Positions 4,389 to 63,515 of a DNA stretch of 64,000 bases are shown here, one piece after another. Numbering within the stretch: the first letter of the stretch is position 1; every line of letters starts with the position of its first letter. The notes under the pieces are model-generated. The model searched no databases. It worked only from the letters and a program-made list of their open reading frames with translations, and had not been told where the DNA came from. This stretch comes from Candidatus Saccharimonadales bacterium. GTDB taxonomy: Bacteria > Patescibacteriota > Saccharimonadia > Saccharimonadales > UBA10212. Position numbers and translations under genes: made by a program. The DNA lies in NCBI GenBank assembly GCA_035758565.1, contig DASTXL010000002.1:83118-147117 (forward strand), in the 5' to 3' direction.

Positions 4389-4799
4389 CTACTCCAATTT
4401 ATCAATTATTTGTTCAATGTTTGCCGACAAATGCGCCACGTCGATCGCTTCAAAAATATTGTGTTCACTGGCGGTCAAAATACATTTCTTAGCTTTGTTA
4501 AGCCAAGATTTTGCTCGCTTGGCGTTATCGAGCTGATCTTCCCTGGTTTCGCTAAGCTCATAGGCATTAGAGTAAATCCGAGCATCTACTAAATCTTGCT
4601 GCAGGTCCGAAAGAAGTTCGCGGTTCTTAGAACTTAACTCCCCAAAATTAACCTTACGCAAAATCTGCCGCACGTCGCTATCCAAGCGCTTGACCAAAAC
4701 CGATAGCGATTGACTACTCTCCATATACTCCCATGGTAAATTCATTCGTGAATGAAGTACAAGGAAAAAGCGAGCATTGGAATGAGCCGTATTTAACAT
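4389..4799 (-). CDS. Hypothetical protein
   Basis: An ORF fills the gap between efp and rpsR. The helical, charged sequence has no motif I recognise. An internal ATG at 4724 (MESSQSL) preceded by GGGAG may be the true start. Confidence 0.45.
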   Translation of the reverse strand: MLNTAHSNARFFLVLHSRMNLPWEYMESSQSLSVLVKRLDSDVRQILRKVNFGELSSKNRELLSDLQQDLVDARIYSNAYELSETREDQLDNAKRAKSWLNKAKKCILTASEHNIFEAIDVAHLSANIEQIIDKLE

Positions 4800-4855
4800 A
4801 CGGTGAGTGAAACGCGCAGGTTTTGACGCCGTAATTCGCCACGAATAATTTAGCT

Positions 4856-5346: not shown

Positions 5347-5820
5347 TTAAAATGGGATGTCGTCGAGGTTGATCGGCTCATCGCCAATATCCTCGATAAC
5401 TACTTCCTCGTCATCCTTAGCTTTGCTGCTTGATTTGCTGGAACTTGCAGGCGCGCTTGAGCCACCACCGTCGCTGCCGCCAGGACCACCCAAGAATGTA
5501 ACGTCCTGGGCTACAACTTCAACTTTGCTACGTTTTTGACCATCTTGCTCCCAGCTACGGCTTTGCAAACGGCCATTAACTAACGCCGGGCGGCCCTTGG
5601 TCAGATACTGGGCAACGCGTTCGCCCAAAGGCCCCCAAGCCACGATGTCGATATAATCGGTCGCTTCGGTCCAGCCGCCATCGCTATTTTTATAGCTGCG
5701 GTTCAGCGCCAGACTAAAACTGCAAACGTTATTGCCATTTGGCGTAGTACGCAGTTCTGGATCGCGCGTTAGGTTGCCCATTAGAATTACTTGATTAAAA
5801 CTTCTTGCCATGGTTCGCAT
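5347..5820 (-). CDS. ssb: Single-stranded DNA-binding protein
   Basis: OB-fold N-terminus (NQVILMGNLTRDPELRTTPNG), Gly/Ser-rich linker, acidic tail ending DDIPF. Confidence 0.95.
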   Translation of the reverse strand: MRTMARSFNQVILMGNLTRDPELRTTPNGNNVCSFSLALNRSYKNSDGGWTEATDYIDIVAWGPLGERVAQYLTKGRPALVNGRLQSRSWEQDGQKRSKVEVVAQDVTFLGGPGGSDGGGSSAPASSSKSSSKAKDDEEVVIEDIGDEPINLDDIPF

Positions 5821-5955
5821 GTTTATGCTTCCAAATTACGGCGTCAAGCCTTCCGTTGCTCCTGCGAAGTAGAGTTCCTACGTCTTAGTCCGCTACTCGG
5901 GCTTTCCTTGTACTTTGTCGCCTAAACATCCTCCTTTTCTTTACTTATCCCTATT

Positions 5956-6339
5956 CTACTCTTCTTCGTTATCGTTATCGTCGTCATCGTTAGAACCGCG
6001 CTCAGCTGCCTTCTTAGCCTTATCGGCTTTGGCGGCTTCGGCTTTGGCGATAGCTTTCAGATCTGGCTTGGTGATCAAAAAGCGAATGATCTCGTCGGTA
6101 ATGTTGAAAACTTGTTCAACACGGGCGACGTTCTCGGCCGGCATCTCAACCGTATAAAAAACGTATACGGCGAAGTCTTGTTTTTTAATTGGGTAGGCTA
6201 ACTTACGTTTGCCCCAATTGTCGGTTTTTTCGATCTTACCGCCATTGTCGGTGATGATTTTTTTGATGCGGGTCTCGGCCTTTTCTAGATCAATTTCTAG
6301 ATCAGGATGATAAAGCACAGCAATTTCGTATGTGTTAAT
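5956..6339 (-). CDS. rpsF: 30S ribosomal protein bS6, probably initiating at ATT
   Basis: S6 fold with an acidic C-terminal tail. The ORF-track start (GTG 6318, MLYHPD) would delete the conserved N-terminal x-x-Y-E-I strand. In-frame upstream codons read ATT AAC ACA TAC GAA ATT GCT GTG, with AAGGAAGGAG ending 6 nt before the ATT at 6339. Confidence 0.85.
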   Translation of the reverse strand: MNTYEIAVLYHPDLEIDLEKAETRIKKIITDNGGKIEKTDNWGKRKLAYPIKKQDFAVYVFYTVEMPAENVARVEQVFNITDEIIRFLITKPDLKAIAKAEAAKADKAKKAAERGSNDDDDNDNEEE

Positions 6340-6375
6340 AACGAACTCCTTCCTTTGGCTCCAAGCTTTCAGTTC

Positions 6376-6506
6376 GCATCAGCCTGTCTGCTAGCAAAGC
6401 CAGCAGCTCCGCTGATGCTTTTGGCGAATTGCGTTGTCGCTTATGCTCAGTCGTTCGCTCAACGTATTTCTATACGCTTCGCTCACTCCTCGCTAGCTCC
6501 TAGCAT
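6376..6506 (-). repeat. Structured repeat element of about 130 nt, copy L, in the rpsF 5' leader
   Basis: Nested hairpin (GCATCAGC 6376-6383 / GCTGATGC 6411-6418 enclosing CTGCT/AGCAG), then TTTTGGCGAATTGC, hairpin CGTAT/ATACG (6462-6476), ACGCTTCG, TCCTAGCA. It is colinear, with near-identical spacing, with 21704-21832 inside fpg. Confidence 0.55.
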
Positions 6507-6585
6507 TTCATCCAAAACTAAAACCTTGGCTTCGGCTGAGCACCTAATTAAGTTGTCCCAACCTGAATTAGTTTTTAGTAGGCAA

Positions 6586-6614
6586 ATTGTAGCACTTTAC
6601 CCCTTATAAATCAA
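6586..6614 (-). promoter_or_regulatory. Sigma-70-type promoter of the rpsF operon
   Basis: The minus strand reads TTGATT-N17-TACAAT (TTGATT = 6614-6609, TACAAT = 6591-6586). This implies a 5' leader of about 240 nt. Confidence 0.6.
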
Positions 6615-21173: not shown

Positions 21174-22208
21174 CTAAGGCAAGATTTGGTCGTGCGGGCA
21201 AAAGTGTGTACCTCGGCCAGCTACACGGGTTTTTTCGATAATCGTGCCGCAGCGCGGACACGGCTGGCCTTCTTTTCTAAACACATTGGCAAAGCTTAGG
21301 TAGCTACCTTTGTTGCCTTCGGCATCGACATAGTTTTTATCAGTGCTGCCGCCTTTTTCTATAGATAGTCTTAGCACTTGCAGCAATCCGTTATAAAGAG
21401 CCATGAGCTTGGTTTTAGGGATTTGGCTAACTATGGTTGCCGGGTGAATTTTGGCCAGCCACAGCGATTCGTCGGCATAAATGTTACCCACGCCGGCAAG
21501 CACTGTTTGATCCAGCAAAACGGCTTTAATGTTGCTGTTCTTGCGCCGCATAATACGCTCAATAAACATATCAACCGTAAAGTCGTCTTCTAGCGGTTCC
21601 GGGCCAACCTTTTTAAAGAAATCTATTTCTGGGATTTCGATAGTCGGCATCAGGCGCATCCAGCCGAACTTGCGCTGATCGTTGAAAAACAACTGCGGGC
21701 CGTGTGGGCCTACTTTTGGGCGAAGCCCAAAACTCCGCCCACGCTCTTGGCCGATTGCCTCGTCAGCGACTCCAGTGCTCACGCTTCGTACTTTTTGTAC
21801 GATTTGCTCCGCGCTTCGTCGCTTCCTAGCACTCGGCTCAAGCCCATCGGTTATTTCCGCTTTTCTAGGCTCAAATGTAATAATTACACGCGTAGATTTC
21901 GCGGGCAGGTCGTTCACTAAGTCGGCGTTCGGATGCCCGGCTCCAAACCTTTGTTGGCCGACAAAAACCAGCTGGCCGGTCATTTTTAAGTGGATTATCA
22001 GAGAGTATTGACTAGAAAGATCGATGATCAAAACCTTTGCTCTGCGCCTAACGCCAACTACTTCGGCGCCGACCAAAAAACGCGCTACATCGGCTGGCGC
22101 ATTCGGAAAAGACTTCGGCCAATCGTGCTCGACAGTTTTAATTTTCAAGCCTGGCAAAAGGCGGCTTAAGCCTATGCGGATAGTCTCCACTTCTGGCAAT
22201 TCAGGCAT
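21174..22208 (-). CDS. mutM: Formamidopyrimidine-DNA glycosylase carrying an internal insertion of about 58 aa
   Basis: N-terminal PELPEVE, an H2TH region and a C-terminal zinc finger (CPRCG...FCPHD, where the fourth ligand position is not Cys). At 344 aa it is longer than the roughly 270 aa typical of the family. The extra segment spans residues about 114-171. Confidence 0.9.
   Translation of the reverse strand: MPELPEVETIRIGLSRLLPGLKIKTVEHDWPKSFPNAPADVARFLVGAEVVGVRRRAKVLIIDLSSQYSLIIHLKMTGQLVFVGQQRFGAGHPNADLVNDLPAKSTRVIITFEPRKAEITDGLEPSARKRRSAEQIVQKVRSVSTGVADEAIGQERGRSFGLRPKVGPHGPQLFFNDQRKFGWMRLMPTIEIPEIDFFKKVGPEPLEDDFTVDMFIERIMRRKNSNIKAVLLDQTVLAGVGNIYADESLWLAKIHPATIVSQIPKTKLMALYNGLLQVLRLSIEKGGSTDKNYVDAEGNKGSYLSFANVFRKEGQPCPRCGTIIEKTRVAGRGTHFCPHDQILP
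21704..21832 (-). repeat. Structured repeat element of about 130 nt, copy F, in frame inside fpg
   Basis: Nested hairpin (GTGGGC 21704-21709 / GCCCAC 21737-21742 enclosing TTTTGGGC/GCCCAAAA), then CTCTTGGCCGATTGC, hairpin TCGTAC/GTACGA (21786-21802), GCGCTTCG, TCCTAGCA. The order and spacing match 6376-6506. Confidence 0.55.
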
Positions 22209-22345
22209 TATAACCTTGACCTCTTCTTCTGTTTCAATCCCAGCACTAAAATCTTGATATTCCGCAATCTGATTACAGACTGCTCCATTTCAGGACTTAG
22301 CGCGGGACAGGCTTCGGGTAACTCCGGCATGCGCTAATTATTATA

Positions 22346-28621: not shown

Positions 28622-28763
28622 ATTACCTCGCCCTTGCCCCGCACTAAAACCTGAGCGGAGTAGTTTGTAATCAGATTATGAAGTCTCAAGTTTTTAGTGC
28701 CGGGGTCTCCGCCATTAGGCTAGATTATATACCTTCGGATATAAGCACGCGATTGCTTATGAT

Positions 28764-29904: not shown

Positions 29905-31054
29905 CCTTGAGCTCTTGTGCTTCTTGCATACCCTCTAGATGATTCAGGGCATCTCTTTCTATTTTTCGAATTCTTTCTCTGGCCATTCCCCAGCTTCTTC
30001 CGATTTCGTCCAAAGTTTGAGGCTCGCCCTCAAACCCGTAGCGGGCTGATATAACTTTTCTTTCCATATAGGGCAAGCTGTCTACGAGTTCGCGGATACG
30101 CTCACGGCGAATATCCTCGTGAACGGTTTCTTCGACAGGGGGTTCGGAATCGTTTTCTATCATGTCGCCAAGCTCAGCATCGTCTTCTTCGCCAACGGTC
30201 ATGTTCAAAGATACAGAAGCTCTTACCAGAGACTTAACTTCCTCGACATCCTGAACCGACAGAACGGCTTTGTCGGCAATTTCTTCGTTAGTCGGTTCGC
30301 GCCCTAGCTCCACAACCAAGTCGCGTTCGGCTTTCACAACTTTGTTGAGTTTTTCAACCATGTGCACCGGAATACGGATGGTGCGGGCCTTGTCGGCCAG
30401 GGCCCGGGCTACAGCTTGGCGAATCCACCAGGTAGCGTAAGTAGAGAATTTGAAACCTTTGCGCCAGTCGAACTTTTCAGTGGCTCGATTTAACCCGATG
30501 CATCCCTCTTGAATTAAATCCAAAAAGGGCAGGCCTTGGTTTCGATAACGCTTGGCAATAGAAACCACTAAGCGCAGGTTACTCTCTACCATTTTTTCCT
30601 TGGCCGCCGCATCGCCTCTCTCAATTCTTTTGGCCAGAGTCACCTCTTGATCCGCAGTCAGTAAAGGGTGTTTACCTACCTCTCTTAAGAAAAGCTGTAA
30701 ACTATCCAGCGAGCCGCTCCTAATCAGCTCATCAATTTCCTGCTCCTCACCCTCGTGGTCGCCGTTGATAGTCACCCCCGATTGTTCGATCATGTGAATC
30801 ACCCGGCTAACATCGTGATCCTCTAAACCTAAGCCGTCACAGGCACTGGTAATTGATTCTAGATCAATAAGGCCGTGGTTCTGGGCCGACTCGAGTAAAG
30901 AGCTTATCTCTGGCTGACTTAAAAGATCCGCATAATTGTCGATTCCTGATTCATAACCGCCACCTACCACTTCTAGGTGTGGCTGCGAATAGTAGGCGGC
31001 AGGTCCGTCTTCTTCCGGAGCAATACTAGTATTAAAACTTGGCCCGAATTCCAT
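29897..31054 (-). CDS. RpoD-type sigma-70 factor, second tandem copy
   Basis: Regions 1.2-4 are present: [46 protein letters not shown], and the C-terminal 4.2 [22 protein letters not shown]. Confidence 0.85.
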
Positions 31055-31097: not shown

Positions 31098-32237
31098 TTA
31101 CTGCAGGTATTCGTGCAGACGGCGGGTTTCTTTGTTCTTGCGCAGTTTAGCCAGGGCTTTGGCTTCGATCTGACGGATGCGCTCGCGGGTAACGCTGAAC
31201 TCCTGACCGACTTCTTCTAGAGTGTGGCTTTTGCCGTCCTCTAGGCCAAAACGTAGCTTTAAGATCTTTTGTTCGCGCTCGGTTAGTGTGCCTAAGATTT
31301 GACGAACTTGTTCTTTGAGCAGCTGTTCGCTGGCAGACTCGGTAGGACTTTTTTGGTCTTCGTCCTCGATAAAATCGCCCAAAACGCTATCTTCTTCGTC
31401 GTCGCGGACCGAAGCATCGAGCGAACTGATATCTTGTTTAATTTTCATGATGTGCTCGACCTTGTCGACATCCATCTCCATAGCAACGGCAATTTCTTCG
31501 TTGGTCGGTTCGCGGTTTAACTCCTGAGTCAGGCGGCGCTGGGTGCGCAGCAGCTTATTGATAGTTTCGACCATGTGCACCGGAATACGGATGGTGCGGG
31601 CCTGGTCGGCAATGGCCCGGGTGATAGCTTGGCGAATCCACCAAGTTGCATAAGTAGAAAATTTGAAACCGCGTTCTGGATCGAATTTTTCTACTGCGCG
31701 CAACAAACCAGTGTTGCCTTCTTGGATTAAATCAAGCAGGTCTAAGCCACGGCCTACATAACGCTTAGCAATAGAGACTACCAAACGCATGTTGGCTTCG
31801 GCCATTTGGTCTTTGGCCCGTTTGTCGCCGGACACGACCCTTTTAGCCAGCGCCAACTCTTCTTCGGCGGACAAAAGCGGGATTTTACCGATTTCGCGCA
31901 AGTAAAGACGCACGCTGTCATCGGCAATATCGTCTATATAAGAGTTGTCCTCTTTTAGAAGTTCTTCTTCGGCTTCCTCTTCTTCCCAATCGCTCAGTTC
32001 TACGGCGTCAGGTTCGGTAGCCGGCAGCAGTTCGATGTCGTTTTCGGTCATTTCGGCATATAGGCGTTCCAGCACATCGATATTTGCCGGAGCGTCTGGA
32101 ATCAATGCGAAAATATCGCGCTGATCGAGTTTACCGTCTTTCTTACCCTGCTCGAGCAACTGGGTAATTTCTTTATCATAAGTTTTGTTGGTCCGCTTGG
32201 GCGCGGCCTTCTTGTCTTCAGCTTTCTTTCTGGGCAT
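31098..32237 (-). CDS. rpoD: RNA polymerase primary-like sigma factor
   Basis: [69 protein letters not shown]. It lies directly downstream of dnaG, as in the classical dnaG-rpoD arrangement. Confidence 0.9.
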
Positions 32238-45119: not shown

Positions 45120-45374
45120 TTAATGCCCCCTTTTGTTTGCTACCTTCGTTAATGCTAACGAGTAACACTGAAAATAAGCTAAATGCTATTTTGGTAGCGG
45201 TTAAAATTTTAACTGCTACTGCTTATTATTTTATCACCAGCAAAAATCACTTGCCTCTCCCACCGCTTGGCTTGAGGATAAGCCAAGCGGAAGAGCAGCG
45301 ATAATAAAAACCTTGCTGAAATTGTGCTACTCGTTCGCGCAATTTCCGAGCAAGGCTAGGATTAGATTGATGCG

Positions 45375-45392
45375 TGGCGGAAGGGGCGGGAT
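45375..45392 (-). repeat. Exact 18-nt copy of the 3' end of tRNA-Ser(GGA)
   Basis: TGGCGGAAGGGGCGGGAT at 45375-45392 is identical to 45543-45560 (the tRNA 3' end including CCA), 168 bp apart in direct orientation. Confidence 0.85.
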
Positions 45393-45507
45393 ACCTAAAG
45401 TCGCTAGCGCTCCTGGGATAATTTCGTCGCGTGCTCGAAATAAATTCCTGCGCGCGCTCCTCATTACCGAACCCTGGCTCAAATCCTGCGCTTTCAACTA
45501 GAAAGCT

Positions 45508-63480: not shown

Positions 63481-63497
63481 ACGCTCATGATATCAAA

Positions 63498-63515
63498 TGG
63501 CGGAGAGGGAGGGAT
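63498..63515 (-). repeat. Exact 18-nt copy of the 3' end of tRNA-Ser(GCU)
   Basis: TGGCGGAGAGGGAGGGAT at 63498-63515 is identical to 63687-63704, 189 bp apart in direct orientation. A degenerate T-loop-like GTTCGACCC follows. Confidence 0.85.

Follow-up and report, generated by a model that had tools for sequence, protein, structure and literature searches.

A divergent family of Y-shaped structured repeats in Saccharimonadales, with copies in an rpsF leader and in frame within fpg

The stretch of DNA analysed here, 64,000 nucleotides long and referred to as the window, is part of a metagenome-assembled genome (MAG) of Candidatus Saccharimonadales (TM7, Candidate Phyla Radiation). On its minus strand lies rpsF, which encodes ribosomal protein S6, together with ssb and rpsR on the same strand, and further along lies fpg (Table 1). 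The S6 and Fpg proteins of the window are identical to NCBI proteins from a Candidatus Saccharimonadales MAG. An earlier note, made from the sequence alone, had pointed out that a segment of the rpsF leader (6376–6506) is colinear with a segment inside fpg (21704–21832), each having an outer stem that encloses an inner hairpin, the TTGGCSRATTGC block, a CGTAy/rTACG hairpin and TCCTAGCA. This colinearity was reproduced. The alignment of the two segments is the top non-self match of the window, with a score of 32 against 28 for the next real match and 18.2 ± 2.4 for 500 dinucleotide shuffles (maximum 31), which is better than the shuffles and borderline when taken alone.

The decisive evidence for a family came from a covariance model, as had been suggested in the note. 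Built from 26 copies and run over the window with its filters off, the model recognizes both segments with E values of about 5e-36 to 1e-38. These scores were obtained on complete units of 162 nt, showing that 6376–6506 and 21704–21832 are the cores of such units, i.e., of copies A and D. Thus, the segments are real, but the size of about 130 nt first given for the element is too small, since the true unit has a closing helix that joins both of its ends, and of the architecture described at that time the long arm (100 nt) had been seen only in part. In addition, the window holds four copies rather than the two that were noticed: an nhmmer profile of the first copies returned two further ones at 4749–4845(+) and 5834–5914(−), and the covariance model likewise found four. 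Copies B and C are short forms, which consist of the closing helix P1 (ATGTTTA/TAAACAT in B, ATTCGTG/CACGAAT in C) and the long arm without the short arm. Copy B occupies the rpsF-ssb spacer, and copy C lies immediately after the rpsR stop codon, antisense to rpsR. The two are mutually inverted around ssb-orf90-rpsR and are joined by an inverted repeat (I2). The TTGATT-N17-TACAAT promoter proposed upstream of copy A exists as a pattern, but such matches are not more frequent there than in shuffled sequence.

Table 1. Copies of the element and associated features in the window
Feature	Position	Strand	Description and evidence
Copy A	6364..6525	−	Full length, 162 nt; rpsF 5' leader; covariance model 141.6 bits
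Copy A, parts	P1 6522-6517 with 6373-6368; long arm ~6516-6419; short arm 6418-6376	−	
Copy B	5818..5929	−	Short form, 112 nt; nhmmer E 1.7e-8; covariance model 64.6 bits
Copy C	4739..4850	+	Short form, 112 nt; nhmmer E 6e-11; covariance model 86.9 bits
Copy D	21690..21851	−	Full length, 162 nt; in frame within fpg (element frame 0); covariance model 150.5 bits
rpsF (S6)	5956..6339	−	Pfam Ribosomal_S6; alignment with relatives
fpg, host of copy D	21174..22208	−	Pfam Fapy_DNA_glyco, H2TH, zf-FPG_IleRS
Promoter-like TTGATT-17-TACAAT	6586..6614	−	Pattern scan, 9/12 with TG extension; consensus match only
Likely native rpsF leader hairpin	6534..6567	−	Conserved in relatives; separate from the element
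GAAGCCAAGG, left half of a possible target-site duplication around copy A	6524..6533	−	
GGAGCCAAAGG, right half of the same possible duplication	6352-6362		Possible duplication of 10-11 bp

The look-alikes in the tRNA-Ser spacers, which the note had mentioned as looser candidates, are not members, as their best model score is 11.6 bits (E of about 0.2). Nor are these spacers homologues of each other, being alike only in tRNA 3'-end fragments. At a distance of 150–190 nt downstream of tRNA-Ser(GGA) and of tRNA-Ser(GCT), the T-arm and acceptor 3' end of the respective tRNA occur a second time (ATCCCGCCCCTTCCGCCA and ATCCCTCCCTCTCCGCCA at 45370–45395 and 63490–63512, minus strand); these second copies resemble the att-site duplications of integrating elements, or tRNA gene remnants.

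The fold of the element was derived with RNAalifold from a structure-blind MAFFT alignment of 26 copies. The consensus comprises 53 pairs in eight helices, 45 of these pairs with compensatory changes, and has the shape of a Y, in which P1 pairs both ends of the unit. The long arm of about 100 nt is irregular, being interrupted by small internal loops that are rich in purines (GA/GGA, A.A), and its tip is a CGUAy-loop-rUACG hairpin. In the short arm of 43 nt, an outer stem of 8 bp is separated by a GGAG/NCAG internal loop from an inner stem, also of 8 bp, which ends in a 3-nt loop. Pairing was found in 92.4% of the cells, compared with 28–44% in slid controls; the compensatory cells numbered 348 (40–66 in the controls), the covariation score was 0.686 (0.07–0.14), and the observed pairing and covariation values were attained in none of 500 shuffles. 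P1 is paired in 85% of cells and has a different sequence in nearly every copy, and all 6 of its pairs covary; a local hairpin at the 5' end (GCGC-TTGA-GCGC) was dropped for the reason that the long-range closing helix covaries in all copies. What is conserved across copies are the internal loops GA/GGA, A.A and GGAG/NCAG and the G.U pairs at columns 16/107 and 50/70. Over all copies, G.U pairs outnumber A.C mismatches by 318 to 72, indicating that folding takes place in the sense strand of the host genes, either as RNA or as single-stranded DNA. Copies in intergenic regions fold as well as those in genes, and the highest model scores are intergenic. When copy A was folded alone, it adopted the Y shape of the family (−65.4 kcal/mol, z = −6.5).

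Altogether, 92 copies (72 distinct) were collected from genomes and metagenomes, all of them in Saccharibacteria DNA, so that the additional copies anticipated from the first two do exist. A degenerate pattern of the short arm, searched in 185,579 species genomes, matched at 16 places, 14 of which are in Saccharibacteria MAGs, the other two being chance matches; all 55 of its matches in metagenome contigs are members, each scoring above 100 bits by the model. Every named genome with the element belongs to the Saccharibacteria. Further copies were found with nhmmer on related contigs upstream of polA, in the L22-S3 spacer and at the start of the RNase J gene. The secondary copies in the flanks suggest a density of roughly one copy per 16–30 kb in element-bearing genomes. 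The full copies are uniform in length (161–165 nt), with 112-nt short forms beside them, and their median identity is 59%; few decayed relics were found. The note's proposal of a mobile or RNA-structural family with a fixed architecture and divergent stems is thus borne out by the number of copies, by the strong covariation in eight helices and by presence or absence that differs among orthologous sites.

Known families did not account for the element. An Rfam 15 covariance scan (E ≤ 10) of copy A with its flanks and of the best-scoring copy (L022) gave no match, rpsF-leader families included; an Rfam scan of the window at gathering thresholds returned only three tRNAs. There was no match to the element by blastn in phage and plasmid collections. 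A profile of the insert peptide returned nothing from homologous proteins, and an exhaustive search of representative proteins with the insert peptide found only Fpg clusters and small ORFs, the latter being miscalled intergenic copies. A full-text search of the literature on palindromic elements, MITEs, structured RNAs and in-frame repeats in Saccharibacteria, Patescibacteria or CPR yielded nothing relevant. The element is thus an apparently undescribed, taxon-restricted family of structured repeats.

Related rpsF operons provide empty sites. Six related rpsF-ssb-rpsR loci (S6 80–90% identical, 57 kb in total) carry no copy, the best model score in them being 14 bits. The rpsF-ssb spacer is 6–32 nt long in these relatives versus 136 nt in the window, and the element is also absent from the position of copy C. 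Copies A, B and C are thus insertions and not part of a conserved regulation of rpsF. Copy A was placed just 3' of another hairpin and before the Shine–Dalgarno sequence. This other hairpin, supported by a seven-leader alignment and a consensus fold of 12 pairs, 6 of them with compensatory changes, is likely the native rpsF leader motif. It reads AUUCAGGUyrG..GC...GGC..yyGGCC, followed by CGAGACCAA and the Shine–Dalgarno sequence, and is kept upstream of rpsF in related Saccharimonadales (L079–L083). The possible target-site duplication around copy A has a counterpart in the empty site of the relatives, where the duplicated sequence is present once, as CGAGACCAACGG.

Several gene starts called at this locus fall within copies of the element. 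The start codon of rpsF is apparently ATT at 6339–6337(−), 6 nt after AAGGAG, at a position occupied by TTG in the relatives; in the NCBI annotation, a protein of 138 aa begins further upstream, within the 3' end of the element. If the longest ORFs are taken, ssb would start within copy B (5820) and the gene that follows rpsR within copy C (4799), and the alignment of relatives suggests ATG 5811 and ATG ~4733, respectively, as the starts.

Fpg is the one host protein for which compatibility of the insert with the protein fold was modelled. Copy D encodes residues ~120–173 of the window Fpg, and the Pfam N-terminal domain Fapy_DNA_glyco is broken at residue 115, exactly at copy D. In the AlphaFold2 model, residues 120–168, which lie between strands 106–112 and 172–177, have pLDDT values below 50. 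Most Fpg orthologues have 289–294 aa and lack about 50 residues at this site, and a subset of 341–355 aa has them. In the Fpg tree, the window protein and its sister (P0002) are nested among sequences without the insert. The insert of P0002 contains an unrelated peptide; however, its DNA aligns with that of the others and forms the same hairpins from different sequences, showing that conservation is at the level of the nucleic acid. The identity of the element and that of its host gene also disagree: the window element is 81% identical to the element of a distant fpg, with flanks that are 66% identical, and only 56% identical to the element of the sister gene, in which the other frame is used and the flanks are 69–77% identical.

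Other features were observed around these fpg genes and elsewhere in the window. In one relative, a gene of the 23S_rRNA_IVP family (PF05635; L003, 11069–11461) directly follows the insert-bearing fpg; this family also covers the Avd proteins of diversity-generating retroelements. In the window, a 48-nt inverted repeat (22239–22286 and 28657–28704, 81% complementary, arms 6.4 kb apart) has its first arm just upstream of fpg, a 184-nt direct repeat (30274–30457 and 31487–31670, 80% identity, 1.2 kb apart) probably reflects neighbouring paralogous genes, and several families of 31-nt repeats occur inside a long repetitive coding region at 36.9–42.7 kb.

Approximately 26 of the 72 distinct copies lie within ORFs, and these belong to at least nine protein families. 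The hosts include Fpg, Dus, Xth (with one or two copies), an MGMT-like protein, RarA and FolD, as well as the N-termini of RNase J and PolA and the long leaders of type IV pilin-like proteins, in which the copies lie just before a G|FT(I/L)VE motif. All genic copies are in sense orientation and in frame, and no antisense genic copy is credible. Two reading frames of the element are in use, giving unrelated peptides from the same DNA. Each genic copy has an open frame and a length divisible by three (162 or 165 nt), whereas the frame that genic copies use most is interrupted by stops in 8 of the 13 intergenic copies looked at first, as it is in most intergenic copies. Based on these open frames and lengths, the genic copies would be translated as about 54 hydrophilic, disordered residues, which, we infer, host proteins can accommodate in loops at their surface, as N-terminal extensions or in pilin leaders that are cleaved off. 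Open frames are more common in antisense (41, 18 and 39 of 67) than in sense (8, 31 and 13 of 67). The peptides of the antisense frames are hydrophobic (GRAVY +0.2 to +0.4), and those of the sense frames are hydrophilic (GRAVY −0.8). It is plausible that the antisense peptides, being hydrophobic, are less tolerable to a protein, which would account for the sense-only rule in genes. The one apparent antisense genic copy, in L072, was judged spurious, i.e., a short ORF created by the open antisense frames of the element with a low-complexity-like product. The antisense ORFs at 6307–6609(+) in the window and in L043 were judged spurious in the same way.

Individual host genes show how the copies are arranged. 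One gene for tRNA-dihydrouridine synthase (Dus; L017, 4264–5727) holds three in-frame copies and encodes 487 aa instead of ~330, and its Pfam domain is split into three stretches; in a Dus orthologue (L061), one unrelated copy occupies the first of the three sites. Five pilin-like genes have the element as their N-terminal leader (L033 605–1171; L035 232–1125 and 1135–1794; L060 1869–2552 and 3139–5445). These leaders stand immediately ahead of the prepilin cleavage motif GGFT(I/L)VE, so that prepilin peptidase would remove the element if it is translated.

Apart from coding sequences, copies were found in 5' leaders, operon spacers and 3' ends. According to approximate gene calls, intergenic copies in operon spacers are sense in 6 cases and antisense in 12, a further 9 lie at convergent gene ends, and no copy was found in intervals between divergent genes. 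For one third of the intergenic copies, the genes on both sides run antisense to the element. The occurrence of both orientations is awkward for a simple cis-acting role in mRNA. Signs of a conventional transposition mechanism were not detected: over 65 copies, the best flank match averages 5.69, compared with 5.65 for mismatched controls, indicating that there is no general target-site duplication, a possible one being seen at copy A alone, and neither a mobilizing enzyme nor a conserved terminal inverted repeat was found, with no transposase gene beside any copy in the loci read. Nevertheless, a copy in FolD and a copy in a pilin leader are 86% identical with unrelated flanks. This pair, together with the empty rpsF sites, the nested Fpg inserts and the mismatch between element and host identities, points to repeated gain, replacement or recombinational transfer. 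No near-identical copies were found at different loci of one contig, which together with the median identity of 59% indicates that any burst of spread is old.

A different kind of evidence comes from copies at the same site in related genes. In RarA, RNase J, Xth and Fpg, some same-site copies have diverged about as much as their flanks, and in these most of the pairs that changed did so on both sides and stayed paired. For example, between the RarA copies of L019 and L063, 33 pairs are unchanged, 15 are doubly substituted and compensated, one has a single change and four are broken. In the same-site comparison, unpaired positions differ in 20% of cases and paired positions in 36%. These double substitutions, which preserve the fold, indicate that the fold is under selection where it sits.

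Several explanations have to be weighed against these observations. A chance likeness of two GC-rich, hairpin-prone segments would agree with a pairwise score that barely exceeds the best shuffle and the next real match, but is refuted by model scores of 141–150 bits, 92 members, the covariation statistics and the interruption of the Fpg domain exactly at the insert. A regulatory leader specific to rpsF, e.g., an autoregulatory S6:S18 structure to which the likeness in fpg would be incidental, might be suspected from the three copies in the rpsF-ssb-rpsR operon of the window, and a motif in the 5'-UTR of rpsF is reportedly bound by S6:S18 (Fu et al. 2014). Copy A shares with this motif its place in the rpsF leader; however, the element is not conserved in related rpsF leaders and is present in many other genes. 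Absence from the six related operons, occurrence in at least 15 unrelated gene contexts, the lack of a matching Rfam leader family and the separate conserved hairpin upstream make such a leader extremely unlikely, effectively a refuted proposal, and the hairpin at 6567–6534 is a better candidate than the element for a native regulatory motif. It is very unlikely, too, that the element is an intron-like or bypassed intervening sequence, cut from the mRNA or skipped by the ribosome, with P1 joining the junctions. P1 does pair the element ends in every copy and the fold is strongly selected within essential genes, yet the genic frames are open and their lengths multiples of three, neither of which removal would need, the intergenic copies are equally well conserved, and no group I/II intron or ribozyme family matches. 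The same open, three-fold genic frame, unlike most intergenic copies, speaks against a self-splicing intron, and an insert of 54 aa that is read in two frames, compared with a splicing domain of at least ~130 aa, speaks against an intein. Inteins, group I/II introns, bridge or omega RNAs, retrons and DGR templates were set aside by size, by the lack of an adjacent enzyme gene or by the lack of a model match.

The selected fold itself may be read in more than one way. A functionless quasi-palindrome at the DNA level, whose arms stay complementary through template-switch correction during replication, predicts that double changes far exceed single ones among orthologous copies, as was observed, and imperfect palindromes make up essentially the whole element. 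But template switching should erase mismatches, whereas internal loops and specific G.U pairs persist across copies; the asymmetry of G.U over A.C indicates one folding strand; and the unpaired positions are the most conserved, which leaves this explanation unlikely. The main rival is a structured RNA module that serves the host as a platform in cis or in trans, e.g., as the target of an RNase or of a global RNA-binding protein that controls mRNA stability or processing, with the copies in coding regions under double selection. It is favoured by the compensatory changes between copies at orthologous sites, in which loops vary less than stems, by intergenic copies that are as well folded as genic ones and include the top scores, by the scarcity of decayed relics, by the absence of copies between divergent genes compared with 9 in convergent regions, by the excess of G.U over A.C on the sense strand, and by the sense-only rule in genes despite the more frequently open antisense frames. 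Moreover, selection in place is strong and extends to intergenic copies, which is hard to square with the decay of dead selfish DNA and favours an RNA function at the level of the host. The element also has four conserved unpaired GGA/GGAG motifs, which may resemble the sites of CsrA-type regulators. On the other hand, the element is present or absent among close relatives (six rpsF operons and many fpg genes are without it), one third of its intergenic copies are antisense to both neighbours, and its host genes share no theme other than housekeeping. A host module of this kind is therefore a serious but distinctly less probable explanation.

The closest analogue of the element is the Rickettsia palindromic element (RPE), for which ten families of ~150 bp elements have been described, nearly half of the elements being fused in frame to metabolic genes (PMC10969869; RPE-1 and related families, Ogata et al. 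2000, as summarised in PMC10969869). In both cases, dispersed repeats of ~150 nt with a stable predicted fold occur in many copies in a small, reduced genome, and a large share of these interrupts unrelated housekeeping genes in frame, at positions that the fold of the protein can accommodate; no transposase is encoded, and the copies are old, with positions partly conserved between species. However, the Saccharibacteria element belongs to another phylum (Saccharibacteria/CPR) and no sequence relationship was detected, the RPE being compared by description only. It is a two-armed Y with conserved purine-rich loops, whereas the RPE is a simple hairpin; its two reading frames mean that there is no single conserved peptide; and compensatory evolution at orthologous sites is demonstrated here. 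Thus, the element resembles the RPE in behaviour, while membership by descent is unsupported.

Two other classes of repeats are less close. Like the MITEs (Correia/CREE, ERIC, RUP, BOX), the element is small, non-autonomous and hairpin-forming, lies in transcribed regions and can fuse to ORFs. In MITEs, the terminal inverted repeats are conserved in sequence, the target site is duplicated and a related autonomous IS exists, whereas the terminal helix of the element differs per copy, there is no general duplication, no parent element was seen in the loci read, and divergence among the copies is much greater than in active MITEs. With REP/REPIN sequences, it shares dependence on structure, long persistence and a place in transcribed extragenic space away from promoter regions. 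However, REPINs are doublets of 20–40-nt palindromes that never lie in genes, hardly differ within one genome and depend on a gene for the RAYT transposase, in contrast to 162-nt units of which one third are genic, which are highly divergent (59%) and beside which no RAYT was seen in the loci read.

Taken together, the segment in the rpsF leader is a complete copy of what is probably an ancient, non-autonomous, highly structured Saccharimonadales repeat that behaves like an RPE, a reading we hold with moderate confidence. Such a repeat may have been spread by a trans-acting activity that recognizes the folded single strand, RNA or single-stranded DNA, and may also have travelled through homologous recombination of the flanking genes. 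Wherever it sits, the fold would still have a role, probably that of a co-transcribed RNA module which a cellular factor binds or processes. Alternatively, and with clearly lower probability, the element might be, rather than tolerated junk, a functional structured RNA domain in dozens of Saccharimonadales transcripts, either as the place that a global RNA-binding factor binds or processes, or as the RNA form of an RNA-mediated mobile element; within coding sequences, the same DNA could then be under selection for its Y-shaped RNA and also for encoding a harmless peptide. For the Candidate Phyla Radiation, either role, if true, would mean a new class of RNA, regulatory or mobile.

The family has consequences for annotation, where it gives rise to spurious small ORFs (window 6307–6609; P0122, P0124 and P0127), to wrong starts (ssb, the gene after rpsR and the 138-aa rpsF call) and to apparent 'insertions' in conserved enzymes. 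It also supplies ~70 diverse sequences for a model that is applicable to all CPR genomes, and it gives unusually clean evidence that a fold of RNA or single-stranded DNA can be kept under selection within coding sequences. RPE-like in-frame repeats have until now been regarded as a peculiarity of Rickettsia; an unrelated family in the tiny, host-dependent genomes of Saccharibacteria suggests that such repeats are a recurrent outcome of genome reduction, which would be a general route to new protein segments.
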